DNA of 29,480 bases, taken from a virus (taxonomy: Duplodnaviria; Heunggongvirae; Uroviricota; Caudoviricetes). The notes beneath the pieces were generated by a model, which worked only from the letters and a program-made list of their open reading frames with translations, was not told the DNA's origin and made no database searches. Of this stretch, positions 1-29,480 are shown one piece after another (positions within the stretch are counted from its first letter, which is position 1; the number at the start of each line of letters is the position of its first letter). The position numbers were made by a program, and so were the translations under genes. The DNA is taken from IMG/VR virus record IMGVR_UViG_2541047692_000014. The stretch is one strand, 5' to 3'.

Positions 1-1011
1 TTATAACGTCACTCCGCCTTTTAGTGGATTCAGAGCGACGGCATTTTGCAGATAGTCAGGCGCAAGGTGCGCATAGGCCATCGTCTGCTGAATGCTCGCA
101 TGTCCCAGAATCTGTTGCAGTGCGATTATATTGCCCCCATTCATCATGAAATGGCTTGCGAATGTATGCCGCAGGATGTGGGTTGCCTGATTGGGTGGTA
201 TATCAGGTTTCACTCTGCGTAAAATCCCGCAAAATTTCTCATAATCAACTTTGAATAATTTGGCGCTGGCCTCCTCTTTAACTTTTTTCTCCAGTTCCTC
301 AGAAATCGGCACGGTTCGCTTTTTACCGTTTTTGGTTTTCAGGAAGGTAACCCTGCAATTTGTAATCTGTGCTGGTTTTAGCGTGGCAACTTCCGTCCAT
401 CTTCCTCCAGTGCTCAGACATAAAAGCGCGACAAGTAAGTCATCACCAGCCAAAACATTTAACAGTTTTTCGATTTCTGCTTTTTCCAGGAACGTCATTT
501 CAGGGTTGGCCTCCGCCAGTGGCGGCAGTCCGTGAATTGGGTGTTGCCCAGAAAATTCATCCAATTGAATTAATTTTGTGAACATGCCGGATAATCGGTA
601 CATGTCACGGTTTATCGTTGCGGCACTGATACCATCACGTAGTCGCATGGAACGATAATCCATCAAAGCCCTTTTGCTCATCCTGCTCACTGGTATATCA
701 CCTATGCCGCTGATGGTTTTGAGTAGATGATTAAACTCTTTTGTTCCATGCTCGTGGTTTTGCCCGTGATATTTCCACCAGATGTCCAGCAACTCACTCA
801 AAGTCCGGCGGTCTGCTCGCTGGCCTCCCCATTCTTTCTGACTGGCATTGGCGATTGTGTATCGCTCAAATGCTAGTGCTTCAGCTTTTCTTTCGAATTT
901 CCTGCGGATGCGTTTTCCGTCGCGACCGCGAGGTCTAATGTCCACTTCATAGCGACCATCATCGAGCTTCTTAATTGCCATAAGAAAGCCCTCCGGCGCT
1001 GTATTCACCAT
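1..1011 (-). CDS. int: Tyrosine integrase (P2 Int-like), 336 aa
   Basis: Translation has a C-terminal tyrosine recombinase signature (HTFASHFMMNGGNI...LQQILGHASIQQTMAYAHL) and sits next to the repressor at the prophage end. An internal ATG at 981 (MAIKKL...) has a better SD (GGAGG, 8 nt spacing) and may be the true start. Confidence 0.9.
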   Translation of the reverse strand: MVNTAPEGFLMAIKKLDDGRYEVDIRPRGRDGKRIRRKFERKAEALAFERYTIANASQKEWGGQRADRRTLSELLDIWWKYHGQNHEHGTKEFNHLLKTISGIGDIPVSRMSKRALMDYRSMRLRDGISAATINRDMYRLSGMFTKLIQLDEFSGQHPIHGLPPLAEANPEMTFLEKAEIEKLLNVLAGDDLLVALLCLSTGGRWTEVATLKPAQITNCRVTFLKTKNGKKRTVPISEELEKKVKEEASAKLFKVDYEKFCGILRRVKPDIPPNQATHILRHTFASHFMMNGGNIIALQQILGHASIQQTMAYAHLAPDYLQNAVALNPLKGGVTL

Positions 1012-3013: not shown

Positions 3014-3510
3014 TGCCGGACAACGTAGATTTTATTCAGGAACAACAGGCTGAATTACTGGAGCGCCAGATTAACGCGGCAAGGGTAAAACATTGCGGTG
3101 TTTCTGCGCTGGTTTGCGAAGAGTGTGACGCGCCAATACCTGCTGCCCGTCGTGCGGCTTATCCATCAGCCACGCGTTGTGTTTCCTGTCAGTCAGTCTT
3201 TGAAGCAAAAAAACAAACATTACCGGAGAATGGCATGAGCATTCGTATTGAAATTGGCGAACGTTATGTCGTTACCAGTGACAGCTTTCAGTTTATTCTC
3301 CACGAGAAAAAGAGAGCGGAAAGCGGTAAAAACGCCGGTCAGGAATGGCTGTCGGTGGTTGGTTATTACCCGAAATTAAGCCAGCTCGTTTCCGGCCTGA
3401 TGCATCACGATATTCTGACCGGAAGCGCAAAGTCTTTTGCTGATTTAAACGCGCAGGTTGAGCAACTCAGCAGGCGTTGTTCAGAGGCTTTTGGCTCATA
3501 TGGCCGTTAA
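3013..3510 (+). CDS. TraR/DksA-family C4 zinc-finger protein (orf82-like) fused in frame to an orf83-like domain, 165 aa; an internal start at 3235 would give a separate 91-aa product
   Basis: N-terminal 70 aa carry a CxxC-N17-CxxC motif (CEECDAPIPAARRAAYPSATRCVSCQ) typical of TraR/DksA zinc fingers. There is no stop before the downstream segment; the in-frame ATG at 3235 has a good SD (GGAG). Confidence 0.55.
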   Translation: MPDNVDFIQEQQAELLERQINAARVKHCGVSALVCEECDAPIPAARRAAYPSATRCVSCQSVFEAKKQTLPENGMSIRIEIGERYVVTSDSFQFILHEKKRAESGKNAGQEWLSVVGYYPKLSQLVSGLMHHDILTGSAKSFADLNAQVEQLSRRCSEAFGSYGR

Positions 3511-5785
3511 AGCCTCCGGGCGTTTTGTCCCTCCGTCAGCATTTGCCGCAGGCACCGGTAAGGCGTTTACCGGTGCTTATGCATGGAACGCGCCACGCGA
3601 GGCCGTCGGGCGCGAAAGACCCCTTACACGTGACGAGATGCGTCAGGTGCAAGGTGTTTTATCCACGATTAACCGCCTGCCTTACTTTTTGCGCTCGCTG
3701 TTTACCTCACGCTATGACTACATCCGGCGCAATAAAAGCCCGGTGCACGGGTTTTATTTCCTCACATCCACTTTTCAGCGTCGTTTATGGCCGCGCATTG
3801 AGCGCGTGAATCAGCGCCATGAAATGAACACCGACGCGTCGTTGCTGTTTCTGACAGAGCGTGACCACTATGCGCGTCTGCCGGGGATGAATGACAAGGA
3901 GCTGAAAAAGTTTGCCGCCCGTATCTCATCGCAGCTTTTCATGATGTATGAGGAACTCTGCGATGCCTGGGTGGATGCGCATGGCGAAAAAGAATCGCTG
4001 TTTACGGATGAGGCGCAGGCGCATCTGTATGGTCATGTTGCTGGCGCTGCACGTGCTTTCAATATTTCCCCGCTTTACTGGAAAAAATACCGTAAAGGAC
4101 AGATGACCACGAGGCAGGCATATTCTGCCATTGCCCGTCTGTTTAACGATGAGTGGTGGACTCATCAGCTTAAAGGCCAGCGTATGCGCTGGCATGAGGC
4201 GTTATTGATAGCTGTCGGGGAGGTCAATAAAGACCGTTCTCCTTATGCCAGTAAACATGCCATTCGTGATGTGCGTGCGCGCCGTCAGGCAAATCTGGAG
4301 TTTCTTAAATCGTGTGACCTTGAAAACAGGGAAACCGGCGAACGCATCGACCTTATCAGTAAGGTGATGGGCAGTATTTCTAATCCTGAAATTCGCCGGA
4401 TGGAGCTGATGAACACCATTGCCGGTATTGAGCGTTACGCCGCCGCAGAGTGTGATGTGGGGATGTTTATCACGCTGACCGCGCCGTCAAAGTATCACCC
4501 GACACGTCAGGTCGGAAAAGGCGAAAGTAAAACCGTCCAGCTTAATCACGGCTGGAATGATGAGGCATTTAATCCGAAGGATGCGCAGCGTTATCTCTGC
4601 CGTATCTGGAGCCTGATGCGCACGGCATTCAAGGATAATGATTTACAGGTCTACGGTTTGCGAGTCGTCGAGCCACACCACGACGGAACGCCGCACTGGC
4701 ATATGATGCTTTTTTGTAATCCACGCCAGCGTAACCAGATTATCGAAATCATGCGTCGCTACGCGCTCAAAGAGGATGGCGACGAAAGAGGAGCTGCGCG
4801 AAACCGTTTTCAGGCAAAACACCTTAACCGGGGCGGTGCTGCGGGATATATCGCGAAATACATTTCAAAAAACATCGACGGCTATGCACTGGATGGTCAG
4901 CTCGATAACGATACCGGCAGGCCGCTGAAAGACACCGCCGCGGCTGTTACCGCATGGGCGTCAACGTGGCGCATCCCGCAATTTAAAACGGTTGGCCTGC
5001 CGACAATGGGGGCTTACCGTGAACTACGCAAATTGCCTCGCGGCGTCAGTATTGCTGATGAGTTTGACGAACGCGTCGAGGCTGCACGCGCTGCCGCAGA
5101 CAGTGGTGATTTTGCGTTGTATATCAGCGCGCAGGGTGGGGCAAATGTTCCGCGCGATTGTCAGACTGTCAGGGTTGCCCGTAGTCCGTCGGATGAAGTT
5201 AACGAGTACGAGGAAGAAGTCGAGAGAGTGGTCGGCATTTACGCGCCGCATCTCGGCGCGCGTCATATTCATATCACCAGAACGACGGACTGGCGCATTG
5301 TGCCGAAAGTTCCGGTCGTTGAGCCTTTGACTTTAAAAAGCGGCATCGCCGCGCCTCGGAGTCCTGTCAATAACTGTGGAAAGCTCACTGGTGGTGATAC
5401 TTCGTTACCGGCTCCCACACCTTCTGAGCACGCCGCCGCAGTGCTTAATCTGGTTGATGACGGTGTTATCGAATGGAATGACCCGGAGGTCGTGAGGGCG
5501 CTCAGGGGCGCATTAAAACACGACCTGAGAACACCAAACCGTCAGCAAAGAAGCGGAAGCCCGTTAAAAGCGCATGAAATAGCGCCATCGGCCAGACTGA
5601 CCCGGTCGGAACGAATGCAAATTACCCGTATCCGCGTTGACCTTGCTCAGAACGGTATCAGGCCGCAGCGATGGGAGCTTGAGGCGCTGGTGCGTGGCGC
5701 GACCGTAAATTATGACGGGAAAAAATTCACGTATCCGGTCGCTGATGAGTGGCCGGGATTCTCAACAGTAATGGAGTGGACATGA
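3500..5785 (+). CDS. A: Replication initiation protein A (rolling-circle nicking endonuclease), 761 aa
   Basis: Long ORF with the rolling-circle initiator motifs HWHMMLF (HUH-type metal site) and YIAKYISKNIDGY (catalytic tyrosines). Start placed at the ATG at 3500 (MAVKASGRF...), which gives the P2 gpA length; the ORF-track start at 3458 is an upstream extension overlapping orf83. Confidence 0.92.
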   Translation: MAVKASGRFVPPSAFAAGTGKAFTGAYAWNAPREAVGRERPLTRDEMRQVQGVLSTINRLPYFLRSLFTSRYDYIRRNKSPVHGFYFLTSTFQRRLWPRIERVNQRHEMNTDASLLFLTERDHYARLPGMNDKELKKFAARISSQLFMMYEELCDAWVDAHGEKESLFTDEAQAHLYGHVAGAARAFNISPLYWKKYRKGQMTTRQAYSAIARLFNDEWWTHQLKGQRMRWHEALLIAVGEVNKDRSPYASKHAIRDVRARRQANLEFLKSCDLENRETGERIDLISKVMGSISNPEIRRMELMNTIAGIERYAAAECDVGMFITLTAPSKYHPTRQVGKGESKTVQLNHGWNDEAFNPKDAQRYLCRIWSLMRTAFKDNDLQVYGLRVVEPHHDGTPHWHMMLFCNPRQRNQIIEIMRRYALKEDGDERGAARNRFQAKHLNRGGAAGYIAKYISKNIDGYALDGQLDNDTGRPLKDTAAAVTAWASTWRIPQFKTVGLPTMGAYRELRKLPRGVSIADEFDERVEAARAAADSGDFALYISAQGGANVPRDCQTVRVARSPSDEVNEYEEEVERVVGIYAPHLGARHIHITRTTDWRIVPKVPVVEPLTLKSGIAAPRSPVNNCGKLTGGDTSLPAPTPSEHAAAVLNLVDDGVIEWNDPEVVRALRGALKHDLRTPNRQQRSGSPLKAHEIAPSARLTRSERMQITRIRVDLAQNGIRPQRWELEALVRGATVNYDGKKFTYPVADEWPGFSTVMEWT

Positions 5786-6237
5786 TGGCAAAAATTCACG
5801 AGGTAAAGCTGCACGCAAAATATTTTGACCTTGTGCTGGAAGGAAAGAAACGCGCAGAGTTTCGGAAAAATGACCGTAATTATGAGCGCGGGGACACGTT
5901 GATTTTGCATGAATGGGCGCAGGGTGTGTATACGGGGCGAAAGGTTGAAGCCCGGATAACAGATGTTACTGACCTGTCAGACTGGCTGGAAGATTATGTC
6001 TTGCTAAGTATTGAGCTGCTTAATACAGGCGCATATGAGATTGTGAACTGGAAAGAACTTAGTGAGCGTGGTCTGGTATTCAGAATTAATCATGAAATTA
6101 TGCATCAGCTCGGCCTTTCTGTTATGTATGCACCAGAGACGGGGATGTCTGGCGGGGCAATGGTTGCCACGGATGGAGCATGGAACTATTCAGATGAACA
6201 GATTGAGCGTGCAAAGCAAAACGGGTGGCTTGGATAA
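5782..6237 (+). CDS. ASCH/DUF3850-like domain protein with C-terminal extension, 151 aa
   Basis: ATGA overlap with the gene A stop; N-terminal segment (KIHEVKLHAKYFDLVLEGKKRAEFRKNDRNYERGDTLILHEW) resembles ASCH/PUA-fold proteins. The domain call is from memory and unverified. Confidence 0.55.
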   Translation: MMAKIHEVKLHAKYFDLVLEGKKRAEFRKNDRNYERGDTLILHEWAQGVYTGRKVEARITDVTDLSDWLEDYVLLSIELLNTGAYEIVNWKELSERGLVFRINHEIMHQLGLSVMYAPETGMSGGAMVATDGAWNYSDEQIERAKQNGWLG

Positions 6238-6443
6238 TGCACAGAATACCGGGCGAGATACCGCAACATAACACTAAAAATATCAAGCTGATGGCTATTG
6301 TTCACCGTCTACAGCAGATTATGGTCAACGAAAATCTGACGCCTGACGAGCTGGTCGGGTGTGCCGAAATAGTCCGGGATAATTACGGGCGGCTTAATTA
6401 TATCCGTCAGTCCAGAGTTGCTCCACCGCCACGCAGACTATAG
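6237..6443 (+). CDS. Small hypothetical protein, 68 aa
   Basis: ORF translationally coupled to the upstream gene (TAATG at 6235-6239). No recognisable motif. Confidence 0.45.
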   Translation: MHRIPGEIPQHNTKNIKLMAIVHRLQQIMVNENLTPDELVGCAEIVRDNYGRLNYIRQSRVAPPPRRL

Positions 6444-6658
6444 AAAACGCCGTCAGTCTTGAAACTTGTTTTCAGGGCTGGCGGGGTTGAACAACGAGCA
6501 TCGCGAGGCGTTAGTGGTATTGGAACCAATGAGAAAACAAAAAACTCAACGCCTCCCCTCATGTTTGATGGTATGGTCTTGTTTTTAGGTAATGAAGCTT
6601 TATTCGGGTGACGTGTCTAATATAGCTTTCTGCATGACGTTAGAATGATGATGAGATC

Positions 6659-7261
6659 ATGTTATTAATGAATGAGAAAAAAAGACAAAAATATCTAAAG
6701 ATAATGTTTGAATGTCAAAAGCGACTTGAAACACTTCATGCTTTATCATCTGGAAGGATTGATGGCATTTATTTTCAAGTGTTAATTGAAATGGAGGCGT
6801 TGCAGCTTAGGAAGCTACTAGAGCTCATTGCATTTTCATCTCTAATTTCACATGAAAAAGCATACGAGAAGGTTACAAAGAAGATTGATGGTGTATGGAA
6901 GGCGAAGAATATATTTAAAGAGTTGGAAAAGATAAACCCTAACTTTTATCCAGTACCAATATCAGGAGTAACCAAAACGGGCTGGACGAAACTAACGGGA
7001 GGTTTTTTGACGAAAAAACAGTTTATCAAGCTATATGATGAATGCTCAAAACATATTCACGTAAGGAACCCATATCGGGTTAGGGAAAACTCGCTGGGGT
7101 TTCATAAAAAAGTTCCAGAGTATTTATCAAGAATTGAAACTCTACTGTTAAAGCACATTGTTTCTCTTGCCGGGAATGAAGAACTTCTTCTTGTAGATGT
7201 GCCTCATTATGAAGACTCTGTAACAGCTATAAAAATGAGCCACCTCGTTAAAATGGGGTGA
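6659..7261 (+). CDS. Hypothetical protein of unknown function, 200 aa, AT-rich cargo at the P2 tin/old hotspot; candidate anti-phage defence or superinfection-exclusion gene
   Basis: Uninterrupted 200-codon ORF (alternative start at 6668) in a markedly AT-rich block, unlike the flanking phage core. It follows a 215-bp non-coding spacer and is followed by a stem-loop plus T-run. It sits between the replication module and cos, where P2 carries tin/old. Confidence 0.6.
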   Translation: MLLMNEKKRQKYLKIMFECQKRLETLHALSSGRIDGIYFQVLIEMEALQLRKLLELIAFSSLISHEKAYEKVTKKIDGVWKAKNIFKELEKINPNFYPVPISGVTKTGWTKLTGGFLTKKQFIKLYDECSKHIHVRNPYRVRENSLGFHKKVPEYLSRIETLLLKHIVSLAGNEELLLVDVPHYEDSVTAIKMSHLVKMG

Positions 7262-23298: not shown

Positions 23299-23817
23299 AT
23301 GGCAATGCCGCGCAAACTCAAGTTAATGAACGTCTTTCTGAACGGCTACAGCTATCAGGGCGTTGCAAAGTCCGTCACGCTGCCAAAACTGACCCGTAAG
23401 CTCGAAAACTATCGCGGTGCGGGGATGAACGGCAGCGCACCGGTAGACCTCGGCCTTGATGACGATGCGCTGTCAATGGAGTGGTCGCTCGGGGGCTTCC
23501 CGGATTCGGTTATCTGGGAGCTTTACGCCGCAACCGGTGTGGATGCCGTGCCGATTCGTTTTGCAGGCTCTTACCAGCGCGACGATACCGGCGAAACGGT
23601 GGCCGTCGAAGTGGTCATGCGTGGACGTCAGAAAGAAATCGACACCGGCGAGGGTAAACAGGGAGAAGACACCGAGTCGAAAATCTCCGTGGTCTGCACC
23701 TATTTCCGGCTGACGATGGACGGTAAGGAGCTGGTCGAAATCGACACCATCAACATGATTGAGAAGGTGAACGGCGTCGACCGGCTGGAGCAACACCGCC
23801 GAAATATCGGCCTGTGA
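23299..23817 (+). CDS. FII: Tail tube protein, 172 aa
   Basis: 172-aa ORF directly after the sheath gene, the P2 gpFII length. Confidence 0.92.
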   Translation: MAMPRKLKLMNVFLNGYSYQGVAKSVTLPKLTRKLENYRGAGMNGSAPVDLGLDDDALSMEWSLGGFPDSVIWELYAATGVDAVPIRFAGSYQRDDTGETVAVEVVMRGRQKEIDTGEGKQGEDTESKISVVCTYFRLTMDGKELVEIDTINMIEKVNGVDRLEQHRRNIGL

Positions 23818-23873: not shown

Positions 23874-24149
23874 ATGAACAAAGAAAATGTCATTACCCTG
23901 GACAATCCGGTCAAGCGTGGTGAGCAGGTTATCGAACAGGTCACGCTGATGAAACCCAGTGCGGGGACGCTGCGCGGTGTCAGTCTGGCTGCGGTCGCAA
24001 ACTCAGAAGTCGATGCACTGATTAAGGTGCTGCCGCGCATGACGGCACCGATGCTGACCGAGCAGGAAGTCGCCGCACTGGAACTGCCTGACCTTGTGGC
24101 GCTGGCCGGTAAGGTGGTCGGTTTTTTGTCGCCGAACTCGGTGCAGTGA
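23874..24149 (+). CDS. E: Tail assembly chaperone E, 91 aa (zero-frame product)
   Basis: 91-aa ORF between the tube and tape-measure genes; it contains the slippery heptamer T_TTT_TTG at 24122-24128. Confidence 0.88.
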   Translation: MNKENVITLDNPVKRGEQVIEQVTLMKPSAGTLRGVSLAAVANSEVDALIKVLPRMTAPMLTEQEVAALELPDLVALAGKVVGFLSPNSVQ

Positions 24150-24301
24150 CGTTCCCGAAAAATCTGTCGGTCGATGACCTGATGGCGGATGTGGCAGTGA
24201 TATTTCACTGGCCGCCATCAGAACTGTATCCCATGAGCCTGACCGAACTCATCACATGGCGCGAAAAGGCGCTCCGGCGAAGCGGAAACACGAATGAGTA
24301 A
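23874..24301 (+). CDS. E': Tail assembly chaperone E+E' fusion made by programmed -1 ribosomal frameshift, predicted 142 aa
   Basis: Slipping -1 at T_TTT_TTG (24122-24128) continues in an open frame (FVAELGAVTFPKNLSVDDLMADVAVIFHWPPSELYPMSLTELITWREKALRRSGNTNE) to TAA at 24299-24301, overlapping the T start. The predicted 142 aa matches P2 E+E'. Confidence 0.75.
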
Positions 24302-26741
24302 CAATGTAAAATTACAGGTATTGCTCAGGGCTGTTGACCAGGCATCCCGCCCGTTTAAATCAATCCGTACAGCGAGCAGGTCGCTGTCGGGGGATATCCG
24401 GGAAACACAAAAATCACTGCGCGAGCTGAACGGTCACGCATCCCGTATTGAGGGATTCCGCAAGACCAGTGCACAGCTCGCCGTGACTGGTCATGCACTT
24501 GAAAAGGCACGGCAGGAAGCCGAAGCCCTTGCCACACAGTTTAAAAACACCGAACGTCCGACCCGTGCTCAGGCGAAATTGCTGGAATCCGCAAAGCGTG
24601 CGGCGGAGGACTTACAGGCGAAATATAACCGCCTGACAGATTCCGTTAAACGCCAGCAGCGGGAACTGGCCGCTGTGGGAATTAATACCCGCAATCTTGC
24701 ACATGATGAGCAGGGACTGAAAAACCGTATCAGTGAAACCACCGCACAGCTTAACCGTCAGCGCGACGCGCTGGCGCGTGTCAGTGCGCAACAGGTAAAA
24801 CTTAACGCAGTCAAACAGCGTTATCAGGCCGGAAAGGAACTGGCCGGAAATATGGCCTCAGTGGGCGCTGCCGGTGTGGGGATTGCTGCTGCGGGAACGA
24901 TGGCCGGAGTTAAGCTGCTGATGCCCGGTTATGAGTTTGCGCAGAAAAACTCAGAATTACAGGCTGTGCTCGGAGTGGCAAAAGACTCCACCGAAATGGC
25001 CGCATTACGCAAACAGGCGCGCCAGCTCGGCGACAACACCGCCGCCTCGGCGGATGATGCAGCCGGTGCGCAGATTATCATTGCGAAAGCGGGTGGAGAT
25101 GCTGCGGCTATTCAGGCGGCAACGCCGGTCACGCTGAATATGGCACTGGCGAATCAGCGGTCGATGGAAGAAAACGCTCAACTGTTGCTGGGGACTAAGG
25201 CATCCTTTCAACTGTCAAATGATGATGTCAGCCATGTGGGCGACGTGTTGTCGGCAACGATGAATAAGTCGGCGGCTGATTTTCAGGGACTCAGTGATGC
25301 ACTGACTTACCTCGGGCCTGTTGCGAGGACGGCAGGTGTAAGTCTTGAGCAGGCAGCGGCCATGACAGGTGTGCTGCATGACAATAACATCAGGGGGTCA
25401 ATGGCTGGTACGGGTAGTAGCGCCGTTGTCACCCGATTACAGGCACCGACTGGAAAAGCATGGGATGCACTCAAAGAGCTTGGCGTTAAAACCTCGGACA
25501 AAAAGGGAAATATGCGTCCGTTGTTCACCATTCTGAAAGAGATTCAGGCCAGCTTTGATAAACACAAGCTGGGAACGTCTCAGAAGGGGGAATACCTTAA
25601 AACCATTTTTGGTGAGGAAGCCCTGAAATCAGCGAACGTTTTACTGGCAGCGGCAGCAAGCGGAAAACTGGATAAGCTGACCGCCACGCTGAAAGCCTCG
25701 GACGGTAAAACGGAAGAGCTGGTTAAAATCATGCAGGATAACCTCGGTGGTGACTTTAAGGAGTTTCAGTCCGCTTATGAGGCGGTGGGGACTGACCTGT
25801 TTGACCAGCAGGAAGGCACACTGCGTAAGCTCACGCAGACGGCCACAAAGTATGTGTTAAAACTCGACGGCTGGATCCAGAAAAACAAATCACTGGCGTC
25901 AACCATCGGCCTCATTGTCGGTGGCGCGCTGGCGCTTATTGGCATCATCGGTGCCATTGGTCTTGTAGCCTGGCCGGTTATCACCGGCATCAATGCCATT
26001 ATCGCGGCAGCAGGCGCAATGGGGGCAATCTTCACGACGGTTGGCAGTGCTGTTATGACGGCCATCGGGGCGATTAGCTGGCCGGTTGTGGCCGTGGTGG
26101 CTGCAATTGTCGCCGGGGCGTTGCTTATCCGTAAATACTGGGAGCCTGTCAGCGCATTCTTTGGCGGTGTGGTGGAAGGGCTGAAAGCGGCATTTGCGCC
26201 GGTGGGAGAACTGTTCACGCCACTGAAGCCGGTGTTTGACTGGCTGGGCGAAAAGTTACAGGCCGCGTGGCAGTGGTTTAAAAACCTGATTGCCCCGGTC
26301 AAAGCCACACAGGACACCCTGAACCGTTGCCGTGACACGGGCGTCATGTTCGGGCAGGCACTGGCTGACGCGCTGATGCTGCCGCTTAATGCGTTCAACA
26401 AACTGCGCAGCGGTATTGACTGGGTACTGGAAAAACTCGGTGTTATCAACAAAGAGTCAGACACACTTGACCAGACCGCAGCCAGAACTCATGCCGCCAC
26501 GTATGGCACCGGTGGTTATATTCCGGCGACCAGCTCTTATGCAGGCTATCAGGCTTATCAGCCGGTTACGGCACCGGCTGGCCGCTCTTATGTGGACCAG
26601 AGTAAAAACGAATATCACATCAACCTGACGGGCGGTACTGCGCCGGGAACACAGCTTGACCGCCAGTTACAGGATGCGCTCGAAAAATACGAGCGGGATA
26701 AACGTGCGCGCGCCCGTGCCAGCATGATGCATGACGGTTAA
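24294..26741 (+). CDS. T: Tail tape measure protein, 815 aa
   Basis: 815-aa ORF, the P2 gpT length, with a coiled-coil N-terminus and a Gly/Ala-rich hydrophobic central segment typical of tape-measure proteins. Confidence 0.92.
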   Translation: MSNNVKLQVLLRAVDQASRPFKSIRTASRSLSGDIRETQKSLRELNGHASRIEGFRKTSAQLAVTGHALEKARQEAEALATQFKNTERPTRAQAKLLESAKRAAEDLQAKYNRLTDSVKRQQRELAAVGINTRNLAHDEQGLKNRISETTAQLNRQRDALARVSAQQVKLNAVKQRYQAGKELAGNMASVGAAGVGIAAAGTMAGVKLLMPGYEFAQKNSELQAVLGVAKDSTEMAALRKQARQLGDNTAASADDAAGAQIIIAKAGGDAAAIQAATPVTLNMALANQRSMEENAQLLLGTKASFQLSNDDVSHVGDVLSATMNKSAADFQGLSDALTYLGPVARTAGVSLEQAAAMTGVLHDNNIRGSMAGTGSSAVVTRLQAPTGKAWDALKELGVKTSDKKGNMRPLFTILKEIQASFDKHKLGTSQKGEYLKTIFGEEALKSANVLLAAAASGKLDKLTATLKASDGKTEELVKIMQDNLGGDFKEFQSAYEAVGTDLFDQQEGTLRKLTQTATKYVLKLDGWIQKNKSLASTIGLIVGGALALIGIIGAIGLVAWPVITGINAIIAAAGAMGAIFTTVGSAVMTAIGAISWPVVAVVAAIVAGALLIRKYWEPVSAFFGGVVEGLKAAFAPVGELFTPLKPVFDWLGEKLQAAWQWFKNLIAPVKATQDTLNRCRDTGVMFGQALADALMLPLNAFNKLRSGIDWVLEKLGVINKESDTLDQTAARTHAATYGTGGYIPATSSYAGYQAYQPVTAPAGRSYVDQSKNEYHINLTGGTAPGTQLDRQLQDALEKYERDKRARARASMMHDG

Positions 26742-28479: not shown

Positions 28480-28698
28480 ATGTTTCATTGTCCTTTATGC
28501 CAGCATGCCGCACATGCGCGTACAAGTCGCTATATCACTGACACGACAAAAGAGCGTTATCACCAGTGTCAGAACGTGAATTGCAGCGCCACGTTCATCA
28601 CTTATGAGTCGGTACAGCGATACATTGTGAAGCCGGGAGAAGTCCACGCCGTAAGGCCGCACCCGTTGCCGTCAGGGCAGCAAATTATGTGGATGTAA
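28480..28698 (+). CDS. ogr: Late gene transcriptional activator Ogr (zinc-finger protein), 72 aa
   Basis: Start at the ATG at 28480 (MFHCPLCQHAAHARTSRY...ERYHQCQNVNCSATF) gives 72 aa with a CxxC-N22-CxxxxC zinc-binding motif characteristic of Ogr/Delta activators. It is the last phage gene before the prophage end. Confidence 0.9.
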   Translation: MFHCPLCQHAAHARTSRYITDTTKERYHQCQNVNCSATFITYESVQRYIVKPGEVHAVRPHPLPSGQQIMWM

Positions 28699-28708
28699 TT
28701 ACAAACAG

Positions 28709-28739
28709 AAAGCCCCTCAGTCGAGGGGCTTTCTGTTTT
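28709..28739 (+). terminator. Rho-independent terminator after ogr
   Basis: Perfect 8-bp stem AGCCCCTC-AGTC-GAGGGGCT followed by TTCTGTTTT. Confidence 0.8.
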
Positions 28740-28838
28740 GGGGAATATTCTTCATTAAAAGTAGTGGATCACGTTTAATAAACTATGTTTATCATATACT
28801 TAAAAGTCAATCTTTAAAGTTGGACAGGTTGGTGGAAA

Positions 28839-29480
28839 ATGGAAAAAGTTATAATTGAGCTTGATAATCGTTGGGAGTTAGCTGATTTCGCGGTCTTAAC
28901 GAAAGAGTATTTGCAGCTATATGGTTTTTTTTATGGCCTAAAAGGAGGATCAAGAGGATATTCAACAATGCCTTGGGAGGGTGGGCACAGTGTGGTGAAC
29001 TTTTTTAGAGGGGCTTACAGTGCGACTCCACCAGATTTACGTCCTGTAGTGAAAAAAATTCAGTATGCCTCTCCTGGCTTTATTGAATTGTCTGCTCTTA
29101 TTGATATCTCTTGGCAGATTGCTGAGTTAGTTACTGCTGTTGGTGGAAGTATTCTGGCTGCCAACAAAGTTTACGATCAGGTGATGCGTACATATCGACA
29201 AAGAGAATGGGCAAAGTTGAAATCAGAGAAGCTGCGTATACAGAATCAAATTAAAGAGATTGAACTTGTTTCTGACGCAGTTAAATCACTTGAATCTGTG
29301 ATGGCACTTAGTGAAGAACAACGTAAAAACTTGGTTCAACTATCGGGGGCAGATGAACTGGTTCAGTTAAAGATACTTTTGGCTGTTTACCGACGGTTAT
29401 CTCCTCTTGTTGAGTTGCAAAACAGCGGGAAAGCTAATTTTTCTGCTGGGAAAAATAAAAATTTAAAAGCGTCCGATTAA
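28839..29480 (+). CDS. Hypothetical protein, 213 aa, AT-rich, with predicted coiled-coil C-terminal half; immediately beyond the ogr terminator (prophage-end cargo or flanking host gene)
   Basis: Complete ORF with SD (GGTGGAAA-ATG) and a stop at the last base of the window; composition clearly more AT-rich than the phage late genes. No recognisable catalytic motif. Confidence 0.55.
   Translation: MEKVIIELDNRWELADFAVLTKEYLQLYGFFYGLKGGSRGYSTMPWEGGHSVVNFFRGAYSATPPDLRPVVKKIQYASPGFIELSALIDISWQIAELVTAVGGSILAANKVYDQVMRTYRQREWAKLKSEKLRIQNQIKEIELVSDAVKSLESVMALSEEQRKNLVQLSGADELVQLKILLAVYRRLSPLVELQNSGKANFSAGKNKNLKASD

Follow-up and report, generated by a model that had tools for sequence, protein, structure and literature searches.

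The E' product of bacteriophage P2 is reportedly essential for tail assembly, and the joined protein E+E' is reported to be made at a few to about 10%. According to the published account of P2, frameshifting at TTTTTTG leads to two products of 91 and 142 aa (PMC3091744), and E', which is devoid of a ribosome-binding site, is made as a -1 extension of E (PMC3091744, PMC3931495). The efficiency of P2-type shifts is given as 2- to 3-fold above that of lambda, in which the ratio of G to GT is 30:1 (PMC5009743). In lambda both products are chaperones for the tape-measure protein, to which they bind, while the tube (major tail) protein is bound through the extension, and both are absent from the virion (PMC5009743). 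P2 gpE was not mentioned in the assembly review of Aksyuk and Rossmann (PMC3185693).

Two further -1 sites are useful for comparison with the window, i.e. the whole 29,480-nt stretch of DNA analysed here. Escherichia coli dnaX (A_AAA_AAG) is similar in having a -1 shift on a near-homopolymeric heptamer and an upstream sequence complementary to 16S rRNA. It differs in that its Shine-Dalgarno (SD)-like element is located 10 nt upstream, a stimulatory hairpin is present and the efficiency is about 50%, whereas in the window the element is 2-5 nt away, downstream structure is unsupported, and the efficiency would be a few percent. HIV-1 gag-pol (U_UUU_UUA) shares the U6 run and the A-site Leu codon, and differs in its eukaryotic ribosomes, its downstream RNA structure, its other biological purpose, and in the use of UUA instead of UUG.

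A P2-like prophage of E. coli

In the region studied the window has a nucleotide identity of 98.4% to P2, and it represents a P2-like prophage carried by E. coli. Its E and E+E' match the P2 proteins at every residue (100% identity), and the 8 base differences in 428 nt are all silent, six of them being situated upstream of the slip site at third positions of the E frame, and two downstream at third positions of the E' frame. The FI-FII-E-T-U-D-ogr block is intact. Cargo genes between A and Q differ from those of P2, and the window copy is, unlike P2, a chromosomal prophage of E. coli. In E. coli strain 4/2-1, the right-end 791 bp (ogr and a flanking ORF) match the window at 100%, and the matching prophage end adjoins fieF/pfkA.

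The P2 record AF063097 carries annotations for E, for a joined E+E' CDS ('-1 frameshift; essential tail protein') and for a 'site of -1 translational frameshift', which corresponds to window position 24129. The 142-aa fusion deduced from the window is exactly the GFL-V sequence of AAD03292.1 (UniProt O64312, 'Tail assembly protein E''). The E/E' site here is already known, and represents an ordinary textbook P2 recoding site in a near-identical prophage. The first-pass annotation, which had recognised a programmed -1 frameshift of the tail chaperone E/E' as documented for P2, is supported by the nucleotide identity, the identical proteins and the AF063097 annotation.

Organisation of the E/E' region

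The order of genes in the window is that of annotated P2 (AF063097; TAP_BPP2; TAPFS_BPP2/O64312), i.e. tail tube FII, E, E' in the -1 frame, and tape measure T. Coordinates of the features are collected in Table 1.

Table 1. Genes, recoding signal and associated elements of the E/E' region, in window coordinates.
Feature	Position	Strand	Evidence or remark
FII, tail tube gene, upstream neighbour	23299..23817	+	Pfam PF04985 Phage_tube, E-value 2.3e-60; P2 gpFII annotation
Gene E, zero-frame product, tail assembly protein, 91 aa	23874..24149	+	ATG 23874, TGA 24147-24149; = P2 gpE (TAP_BPP2)
TAA in the -1 frame; bounds on its 5' side the stretch where slippage can yield a continuous fusion	24110..24112	+	
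AAGGTGGTC, complementary to the 16S rRNA 3' tail; putative shift modulator	24111..24119	+	Predicted duplex
Slippery heptamer T_TTT_TTG; TTT in P site and TTG in A site at the shift	24122..24128	+	
Dual-coding overlap: E C-terminus SPNSVQ (zero frame) / E+E' residues 87-92 (-1 frame)	24129..24146	+	
E stop TGA, 18 nt past the heptamer	24147..24149	+	
E' segment, -1 frame, 57 codons and TAA; G24128 read twice	24128..24301	+	
Pfam Phage_P2_GpE match, fusion residues 104-139; begins at a conserved in-frame ATG without Shine-Dalgarno	24182..24289	+	
Gene T, tape measure protein	24294..26741	+	Pfam PF10145, E-value 2e-44; P2 gpT annotation
Predicted E+E' tryptic junction peptides: tandem slippage form VVGFLVAELGAVTFPK; P-site-only slippage form VVGFFVAELGAVTFPK			

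The codons of the E frame at the heptamer are GGT (24120), TTT (24123) and TTG (24126), which sets the phase T_TTT_TTG, so that the slippery sequence noticed at first pass was found in the gene and in the correct phase. Its distance to the E stop had been given as 22 nt, which had to be corrected to the tabulated spacing between heptamer and TGA (25 nt when counted from the first T). The first-pass coordinates begin at the -1-frame stop TAA 24110-24112. From 24113 on, the -1 frame stays open up to TAA 24299-24301, and both frames are open together over only 34 nt (24113-24146, about 11 codon positions), within which the heptamer is located. As had been proposed, the -1 frame leads to a fusion of 142 aa (85 + 57) and ends in an overlap with the start of the tape-measure gene, E' and T, which begins at ATG 24294, sharing 8 nt (24294-24301). 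P2 has the same TTTTTTG in the same phase and the same distance of 18 nt to the E stop, its -1 frame extends without a stop over the last 37 nt of E (24113-24149 in the window, likewise 37 nt), and its E'/T overlap is 8 nt.

E matched PF10109 (Phage_TAC_7) over residues 7-85 with 47.8 bits against a cut-off of 25 (E-value 1.5e-12), and the E' extension matched PF06528 (Phage_P2_GpE) with 76.3-78.7 bits against a cut-off of 23 (E-values 1e-21 to 2e-22). The PHROG tail families agreed with Pfam, the assignments being phrog_103 for E (E-value 6e-45) and phrog_1756 for the extension (E-value 1e-28). A sequence search of the PDB with E+E' returned no meaningful match (best E-value 0.88).

The analogy to lambda G/GT, also drawn at first pass, is supported by features of organisation that are shared without sequence similarity. 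In both systems the major tail gene is followed by two overlapping ORFs and these by the tape-measure gene; the second of the two ORFs uses the -1 frame and lacks its own start, and a shift of low efficiency sets a fixed ratio. The arrangement in the window is in line with the conserved -1 frameshift of tail assembly chaperones in tailed phages (lambda G/GT class; Xu, Hendrix and Duda 2004). The heptamer is close to the first stop (15 nt for G_GGA_AAG of lambda, 18 nt for P2), lambda T runs 8 nt into the tape-measure gene just as E' does here, and the lambda heptamer GGGAAAG is used by some relatives of P2. However, lambda GT and P2-type E+E' gave no BLASTP match at E-value ≤ 100, and they belong to different Pfam families, PF06894 (Phage_TAC_2) and PF06223 (Phage_tail_T) in lambda, PF10109 and PF06528 in P2. 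The extension has 144 codons in lambda and 57 here, and the tail is non-contractile in lambda and contractile in P2. E/E' is analogous to lambda G/GT without belonging to its protein family.

Conservation of the signal and change of the selected frame

When counted over the window ORFs of at least 90 aa, in-frame X_XXY_YYZ occurred about once per 226 codons (61 in ca. 13,800 codons), and the chance of an in-frame heptamer falling in the 11-codon zone open in both frames was about 5%. Of the X_XXY_YYZ heptamers in the window whose -1 frame extends 90 nt or more beyond the zero-frame stop, only the one in E is in a real gene; eight further cases are in spurious ORFs that are nested within genes A, Q, P and I/H or run antisense to them.

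With tblastn, the fusion was recovered from 418 phage records, 401 of which covered at least 80% of it, and among the matches listed 57 of 60 aligned in two pieces, that is, in two frames. In total, 192 related loci (171 distinct sequences) were surveyed from phages, IMG/VR and GTDB genomes, the slip site being absent from all search patterns used for their collection. E' was in the -1 frame in all 192 loci (171 distinct), and an in-frame X_XXY_YYZ was present in the zone open in both frames in 171/171. TTTTTTG was the most frequent heptamer (153 distinct loci), followed by GGGAAAG (8), TTTTTTA (5), TTTTTTC (4) and AAATTTT (1). At the 38 loci of more than 62% GC, where TTT makes up 26% of Phe codons and TTG 4% of Leu codons, TTT-TTG was nevertheless found at the site in 38/38. 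The heptamer had zero entropy in the lineage alignment, and its spacing to the stop was +18 in most of the P2/186 lineage.

On the 5' side of the site, variability was highest at third positions of the E frame (1.16 vs 0.47 and 0.23), and downstream of the E stop at third positions of the E' frame (0.83 vs 0.35 and 0.19), with variability lowered in both frames across the dual-coding overlap 24129-24146. E'-frame periodicity and a conserved FP..LSVDDLM motif were also seen in the 10 codons that separate the E stop from the first conserved ATG. Purifying selection changes frame at the heptamer.

Proposed mechanism and the junction residue

On these grounds, the site is almost certainly the programmed -1 ribosomal frameshift of the P2-type tail-assembly pair E/E' in an E. 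coli P2-like prophage. The anatomy of the site, its identity with P2, the retention of the signal among relatives and the change of the frame under selection were observed directly in the present analysis. Production of the fusion is taken from the literature on P2, to which the experimental proof belongs, and the window copy, known from its sequence, would be expected to behave likewise.

For the majority of ribosomes, translation of E would start at ATG 23874 and terminate at TGA 24147, yielding the 91-aa protein. A minority would slip back by one base with TTT (24123-24125) in the P site and TTG (24126-28) in the A site, whereupon tRNA-Phe would re-pair with TTT 24122-24124, and tRNA-Leu, at two of three positions, with TTT 24125-24127; the tRNA or tRNAs that slip are named here as the most plausible candidates. 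Starting with GTC 24128, 57 codons would then be read in the -1 frame before TAA 24299 is reached, resulting in the 142-aa E+E'. The part common to both products is the tail-assembly-chaperone domain (PF10109) and the extension carries the GpE domain (PF06528), and a fixed low ratio of long to short product would, by analogy with lambda G/GT, be the purpose of the device. On the same analogy, the chaperone domain would have as its partner the tape-measure protein T, which it would coat, the extension would serve to bring in the tube protein FII, and both products would be missing from the virion; these putative roles of E and E+E' are consistent with the UniProt names 'Tail assembly protein E / E''.

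Tandem slippage would give the junction GKVVGFL-VAELGAV, which is that of the curated P2 protein, and slippage in the P site alone, or an extra U, would give GKVVGFF-VAELGAV. The latter junction had been predicted at first pass; its VAELG frame agrees with P2, whereas its Phe does not, and the Phe form is a possible minor product. We regard it as unlikely that, within the ribosomal shift, it is mainly P-site tRNA-Phe alone that slips while the A site awaits the rare UUG and afterwards reads UUU in the -1 frame, so that GFF-VAELG would be the main product. UUG is indeed rare here, with 4-10% of the Leu codons in these genomes, a dnaX variant is a documented case of -1 slippage confined to the P site, and U_UUG slips poorly in tandem or in the A site in E. 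coli (PMC4066793). Mixed products are also known, as HIV U_UUU_UUA has 20-30% Phe at the equivalent position (PMC5009743), which is a precedent for GFL alongside GFF; however, the Leu (tandem) product predominates there with 70-80%. Moreover, the full X_XXY_YYZ pattern is conserved, including G_GGA_AAG where A-site re-pairing matters, and the curated P2 protein has Leu, though this was perhaps assumed rather than measured. Fusion residue 85 may be Leu as annotated, or partly Phe.

Much less probable is a separate small E' gene for which no frameshift is needed, with its own start at GTG 24146 (51 aa) or at the conserved ATG 24182 (39 aa). Stand-alone E' is annotated in many phage records, and PGAP annotates a 'GpE family phage tail protein' of 51 aa, with a GTG start overlapping the stop of E, an ORF present on about 1000 contigs. 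An in-frame ATG occurred within the first 24 codons of the -1 frame in 152 of the 171 distinct loci, in 149 of them at +57 or +60, and this conserved ATG coincides with the first position of the Pfam GpE model. Against this, GTG at +24 (24146) was found in only 2/171 distinct loci, few other loci had any start codon before +54, and a candidate start was preceded by a strong SD in 12/171 loci only. In the window, predicted anti-SD pairing ahead of GTG 24146 and ATG 24182 was weak (-5.0 and -5.3 kcal/mol), and no ATG, GTG or TTG was present in the -1 frame from 24113 up to GTG 24146. Because the stretch upstream of ATG 24182 has the E'-frame codon periodicity and the FP..LSVDDL motif, it is translated by this evidence, and the sole upstream start in the window is GTG 24146. 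A gene with its own start would give no reason for a heptamer kept in 171/171 loci against codon bias, and the literature describes E' as an extension of E without a ribosome-binding site (PMC3091744, PMC3931495).

The probability is likewise very small that the fusion arises by transcriptional slippage, in which RNA polymerase would add one U on the T6 run and E+E' would have a Phe-Phe junction. The site is a homopolymer run, an extra U gives exactly GFF-VAELG, and T7G or T7C occurs in some relatives (e.g. L118; PMC3931495). Transcriptional slippage in bacteria is, however, documented at runs of about 9 A or T (PMC5009743), when the run here is 6. Relatives with G_GGA_AAG (8 distinct loci) or A_AAT_TTT (1) have X_XXY_YYZ in phase without a long homopolymer, and since these variants keep the re-pairing pattern, the conserved feature is a ribosomal and not a polymerase signal. 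The heptamer is also invariably in the same phase with the E frame, which would be of no consequence to polymerase slippage.

That both the heptamer and the open -1 frame are chance features without function here, as in a decaying prophage, has next to no probability and is effectively refuted by the comparative data, for although a 57-codon open frame and one heptamer could each be due to chance (about 5% for an in-frame heptamer in 11 codons), the proteins are 100% identical to those of functional P2 with silent differences only, the Pfam matches are strong, the signal is present in 171/171 distinct loci, and the FI-FII-E-T-U-D-ogr block is intact.

Sequence elements around the slip site

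For the programmed ribosomal shift, the heptamer alone may be insufficient to account for the reported efficiency, because it is weak in E. coli reporter assays, in which U_UUG was a weak tetramer and U_UU.U_UU.G fell outside the efficient heptamers (PMC4066793). Immediately upstream, AAGGTGGTC had a predicted duplex of -14.0 kcal/mol with the 16S rRNA 3' tail, which placed it in the top 0.07% of plus-strand 9-mers and made it the strongest predicted pairing within a 210-nt span. Among 82 loci of the P2/186 lineage, the element was retained against codon preference, with AAG in 66 and AAA in 1 (AAG constitutes 29% of Lys codons in the background) and GTG in 76/82 (background 37%), the lineage form being AGGTG(A/G)T(C/T).

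The SD-like core AAGGTG is separated from the heptamer by 5 nt, or by 2 nt if the pairing is extended. In published work, SD-like elements 9-14 or 8-11 nt upstream stimulate -1 shifts, and attenuation is predicted at shorter spacing. A stimulator of this kind was absent at 9-14 or 8-11 nt upstream of the heptamer, the element found being too close (2-5 nt). At this distance its effect may be to dampen or tune -1 shifting, or to make the ribosome pause at the slip site, in contrast to the stimulation seen in dnaX. We put forward only tentatively, and with some doubt, that in the P2/186 lineage the anti-SD-complementary element contributes to the efficiency of the E/E' shift besides the heptamer. 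No description of an SD-like element at the P2 E/E' site was found in the literature examined, and the element may be new. An SD-like element beside a heptamer that is weak in E. coli assays poses a small and cheaply testable question on the tuning of low-level frameshift ratios.

The element was also considered as an internal ribosome-binding site for E', which was rejected as the -1 frame is without a start codon over 24113-24146. A hairpin enclosing the slip site (24113-24133) paired in 96.8% of cells vs 96.5% in column shuffles, with one compensatory cell, and is a possible alternative reason for the conserved upstream G's.

Downstream of the heptamer, the 72 nt on its 3' side folded no better than shuffled sequences (z = -0.17), and for P2 no downstream structure has been reported (PMC3091744). 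A candidate hairpin CGCCG-AACU-CGGUG (24130-24143), located 1 nt past the heptamer, was rejected: in 79 distinct lineage sequences it had no compensatory changes, and its 76.2% pairing was below the shuffle mean of 78.3%. The invariant CCG..CGG within it is explained by the dual coding. When 122 nt downstream were folded, z was -1.97, but this value was due to a hairpin at 24179-24222, which at some 50 nt from the slip site is too distant to act on it.

Consequences for annotation

The expectation that gene callers naive to frameshifting miss E' was confirmed in the E. coli genome with the 791-bp right-end match, for which RefSeq/PGAP gives E and a separate 51-aa 'GpE family phage tail protein' ORF, the fusion being missed. 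RefSeq/PGAP together with many phage records split the fusion in this way, into E and a stand-alone 'GpE family' ORF of 30-51 aa, and consequently the 142-aa product is missing from most proteomes. The survey, with all of its 171 distinct loci having E' in the -1 frame and an in-frame X_XXY_YYZ, could serve as a CDS-joining rule for Peduoviridae.

As a minor observation on the family models, the Pfam GpE model seems to begin at an internal Met and not at the true start of the conserved segment.

E/E′ frameshift site

The tail assembly gene E contains the heptamer T_TTT_TTG in the phase and at the position given by the first-pass annotation, and, as it also claimed, a -1 slip there leads into a frame whose TAA overlaps the tape-measure start, the fusion being 142 aa long (85+57), all read from the sequence. 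The frameshift-site observation is thereby confirmed, its reading as a P2-type E/E′ programmed -1 frameshift site is supported, and the feature is already known. The heptamer-to-TGA gap is 18 nt (25 nt counted from the first T), instead of the 22 nt initially stated. The zero (E) and -1 frames are both open over 34 nt only (24113-24146), with the heptamer inside. The ATG of T, the tape-measure gene, is at 24294, which makes the E′/T overlap 8 nt.

Coordinates of features in the window
Feature	Position	Strand	Remark
Integrase	1-1011	-	window left end
Replication gene A	3458-5785
162-aa ORF, ASCH/DUF3850 + DUF7415	within cargo region 5749-7261
Late genes Q to D, and ogr	7668-28698
E	ATG 23874 to TGA 24147-24149	+	ORF, 91 aa
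-1 frame	TAA 24110-24112, then open 24113 to TAA 24299-24301	+	read from sequence
Slip-site codons GGT TTT TTG	24120-24128	+	TTTTTTG at 24122-24128, phase T_TTT_TTG
T, tape-measure gene	starts ATG 24294	+

Window ORFs of at least 90 aa contained 61 in-frame X_XXY_YYZ heptamers in ~13,800 codons (~1 per 226), and the chance of one inside the 11 codons of the both-open zone is ~5%. Heptamers with a -1 frame extending at least 90 nt beyond the zero-frame stop numbered nine in the window, the sole real-gene case being E. The other eight fall in spurious ORFs nested in or antisense to A, Q, P and I/H.

Protein families and conservation of the slip site

E matches PF10109 (Phage_TAC_7) and the -1 segment PF06528 (Phage_P2_GpE, E = 2e-22), both above threshold; PHROG tail families concur for E and E′, and in Pfam FII, the upstream tail tube gene, matches a tube family and T a tape-measure family. 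When the fusion was queried by tblastn against 50,697 phage records, 401 of 418 matches covered at least 80% of it, and 57/60 rows among the matches listed were in two pieces, i.e. in two frames.

The survey took in 17 diverse annotated phages, with a further 174 loci drawn from GTDB genomes and from IMG/VR; the search peptides left out the slip site. Every one of the 192 loci (171 distinct sequences) had E′ in the -1 frame together with an in-frame X_XXY_YYZ heptamer inside the both-open zone (TTTTTTG 153, GGGAAAG 8, TTTTTTA 5, TTTTTTC 4, AAATTTT 1). Variants in the correct phase for -1 into E′ were G_GGA_AAG, which is that of lambda (L010, L184-L191, Mannheimia-type), A_AAT_TTT (L013, Escherichia phage 503458), T_TTT_TTC (L009, L179-L183, Vibrio MAR-type), T_TTT_TTA (L032, L033, L092, L094, L138), and a T7G run (L118). 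In 38 loci above 62% GC, TTT makes up 26% of Phe codons and TTG 4% of Leu codons, and all 38 have TTT-TTG at the slip site; the slip signal is maintained at the nucleotide level.

Per-column entropy was calculated for 54 lineage members of identical geometry. At positions 1, 2 and 3 it was 0.47, 0.23 and 1.16 in the E frame upstream of the heptamer, zero in the heptamer, and 0.35, 0.19 and 0.83 in the E′ frame downstream of the E stop, a pattern that shows a switch of the selected frame at the heptamer. Among the relatives, enterobacterial-prophage-like E proteins 73–92% identical to P2 gpE occurred on contigs of assemblies labelled Bacteroidota or Firmicutes (Chryseobacterium sp. 18061, L021; Vagococcus sp. 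WN89Y, L028; MAG Sporobacter termitidis, L063; one contig of 420 kb), which points to contamination or mis-binning of these assemblies.

The suggested analogy with lambda G/GT was borne out side by side. The lambda order V-G-T-H is that of the P2-type genes, with G_GGA_AAG 15 nt ahead of the G stop, T in the -1 frame, and an 8-nt T/H overlap (L194 1643-1650) equal to that of E′/T. However, lambda GT and P2 E+E′ share no BLASTP similarity at E <= 100, and the lambda Pfam families (PF06894 and PF06223) are other than those of the P2-type proteins. The site resembles lambda G/GT in working, but its family is that of P2.

Alternative origins of the E′ product

A separate E′ gene with its own start would make frameshifting unnecessary, and RefSeq/PGAP indeed lists a 51-aa “GpE family phage tail protein” from GTG 24146 apart from E; the 51-aa GpE ORF is found on about 1000 contigs, and a stand-alone ORF of 30–51 aa in many phage records. 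Of the 171 loci, 152 have an in-frame ATG among the first 24 codons of the -1 frame (at +57 or +60 in 149), the conserved one, 24182 in the window, being M19 of the 57-aa segment and the first position of the Pfam GpE model. However, the GTG at +24 (24146) is present at 2/171 distinct loci only, and predicted anti-SD pairing upstream of ATG 24182 is weak (-5.3 kcal/mol). The 10 codons from the E stop to this ATG, moreover, are periodic in the E′ frame (0.53, 0.28, 1.03) and carry the conserved motif FP..LSVDDLM, so the 24150-24181 stretch is translated in the E′ frame. As its sole in-frame upstream start in the window is that rarely shared GTG, only a shift from E accounts for the translation, and an independent gene is highly improbable. 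Just as improbable is transcriptional slippage on the T run, which is only T6 against ~9 in documented bacterial cases (PMC5009743), while the G_GGA_AAG and A_AAT_TTT relatives keep the tRNA re-pairing pattern and phase, not a homopolymer.

The Phage_P2_GpE model starts exactly at the conserved internal Met (ATG 24182-24184), and the conserved, codon-periodic E′ (FP..LSVDDL) begins ~10 codons upstream of it. Gene-caller ORFs beginning at that ATG were probably the source of the model, in which the real E′ segment is therefore under-represented.

Mechanism and possible modulating elements

In the programmed -1 frameshift, the slip most likely occurs while the P site contains TTT and the A site TTG, and reading would then resume at GTC 24128. 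Such tandem slippage gives the junction GFL-V; the GFF-V peptide predicted in the first-pass annotation fits P-site-only slippage or an extra mRNA U. In E. coli reporter assays U_UUG was a weak tetramer, and efficient U-type heptamers were H_HH.U_UU.Y, U_UU.U_UU.G not being among them (PMC4066793). UUG is also rare here (4–10% of Leu codons); therefore sequence context may influence the shift, and part of the fusion product may have Phe in place of Leu at residue 85, the equivalent position of HIV U_UUU_UUA having 20–30% Phe (PMC5009743).

A canonical stimulator is absent at the E/E′ site: folding of the 72 nt that follow is no better than in shuffled sequence (z = -0.17), and the short stem-loop at 24130-24143 showed no covariation. 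Close upstream of the heptamer lies AAGGTGGTC (24111-24119), with complementarity to the 3′ tail of 16S rRNA. This SD-like element has the general form AGGTG(A/G)T(C/T), ends 2–5 nt before the slip site, and shares its position in the window, L019-L098, L003, L004, L014 and L017. Its predicted duplex (-14.0 kcal/mol) is in the top 0.07% of 9-mers on the strand, the RBS of E (-5.1) and of T (-3.5 kcal/mol) being far weaker. Among 82 distinct loci of the P2/186 lineage, the Lys codon in the element is AAG in 66/67 and AAA in one (background AAG 29%), the remaining 15 having CAG, GAG or CGG, and the next codon is GTG in 76/82 (background 37%). Only one of 44 conserved degenerate codons has a lower synonymous entropy than this AAG, a non-preferred codon, and mean duplex energy at offset -10 is -11.1 kcal/mol vs -2.2 +/- 1.9 over 210 offsets. 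By these counts the P2/186 lineage keeps the candidate element in spite of codon preference, though it is not universal: many phiCTX-like relatives carry AAGATCTCCGG instead.

Published spacing for a -1 stimulatory SD is 9–14 or 8–11 nt, and an SD adjoining the E site attenuates -1 shifts. The spacing here is too short for a dnaX-type stimulator, so the element may be an attenuator or pause element; if functional, its effect on the shift is more likely tuning or dampening than stimulation. A possible hairpin GGUGGUCGG/UUGUCGCC (24113-24133) would enclose the heptamer and is a possible other cause of the conserved upstream G's; 96.8% of its cells are paired in 79 sequences, but column shuffles score the same because every variable position is a transition pairing either way.

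By analogy with lambda (PMC5009743), from which we infer the roles of the two P2 proteins, the chaperone domain would bind the tape-measure protein and the extension would recruit the tube protein. At 24276-24301, T has hardly any Shine-Dalgarno sequence (-3.5 kcal/mol predicted), and the gene's ATG lies 8 nt inside the E′ end. Given this weak SD and the overlap, also seen in lambda, T translation may, speculatively, be coupled to the termination of ribosomes that have shifted frame; tape-measure output would then follow that of E+E′.

Annotation of the fusion

Documentation of the shift in P2, as had been claimed, was located. The P2 record AF063097 annotates E and, as a CDS joined from two pieces, E+E′ ([quoted passage not shown]), with a misc_feature “site of -1 translational frameshift” corresponding to window 24129. 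For P2, a -1 shift at TTTTTTG producing the 91-aa E and 142-aa E+E′ has been described, placed after the terminal G, with a downstream hairpin absent (PMC3091744). PMC3931495 also describes E′ as a -1 extension of E, and the window agrees with this in full, its -1 frame reaching 37 nt back into E (24113-24149). The G:GT ratio is 30:1 in lambda; P2 and its relatives are 2- to 3-fold more efficient (Atkins et al. review, PMC5009743).

By exact-sequence look-up, the GFL-V fusion is AAD03292.1/NP_046780.1/UniProt O64312 (“Tail assembly protein E′”), and the GFF-V fusion has a single entry, QTN08932.1 (P0016). This E. coli chromosomal entry, annotated “GpE family phage tail protein”, has the 142-aa Phe-Phe fusion in one ORF, which suggests an extra T in the run joining E and E′ in frame, either a true mutation or a homopolymer sequencing error. 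The P2 shift is reportedly “about 10%” and E′ essential, as Christie et al. are said to have found in 2002.

Frameshift-naive gene callers miss E′, as anticipated, and misannotation of the fusion is systematic: in PGAP and in many phage submissions E appears alongside a 30–51-aa “GpE family” or hypothetical ORF, without a joined CDS (L193 785-1212 in RefSeq E. coli 4/2-1; phage loci L002, L007, L008, L011-L016), and one record labels the 91-aa E “GpE+E′”. RefSeq re-annotation calls P2-type FII “head closure” (e.g. NC_001895.1); it is tail tube in the original P2 record and matches Pfam Phage_tube (E = 2e-60). In several Yersinia phage records the tape-measure gene is named “smc: chromosome partition protein”.

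The P2-like prophage

The window, a P2-like prophage, has its genes in prophage order. Identity with phage P2 is 98.4% from FII to T, and the 428 nt of E/E′ differ at eight sites, six at E-frame third positions upstream of the heptamer and two at E′-frame third positions downstream. As all eight are silent, E and E+E′ are 100% identical to the P2 proteins.

Over the right-end 791 bp (ogr and flank ORF), identity to several E. coli chromosomes is 100%, and in E. coli 4/2-1 the matching prophage end is followed by fieF and pfkA. Right of ogr lies a 213-aa ORF (28839-29480), for which a Pfam search gave no match; E. coli 4/2-1 has it as a “hypothetical protein” flanked by ogrK and fieF/pfkA. At least 80% of the stretch containing it (28690-29480) was present in only 158/5426 complete E. 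coli genomes, and the ORF may be prophage-end cargo, not core chromosome.

A cargo region with two ORFs lies between A and the portal gene Q; for its 200-aa ORF (6659-7261) nothing was found in Pfam or PADLOC. In P2 this position is occupied by the variable tin/old region. The cargo here differs among related phages, which carry DUF4209, ParaMORC3 or VbhT.
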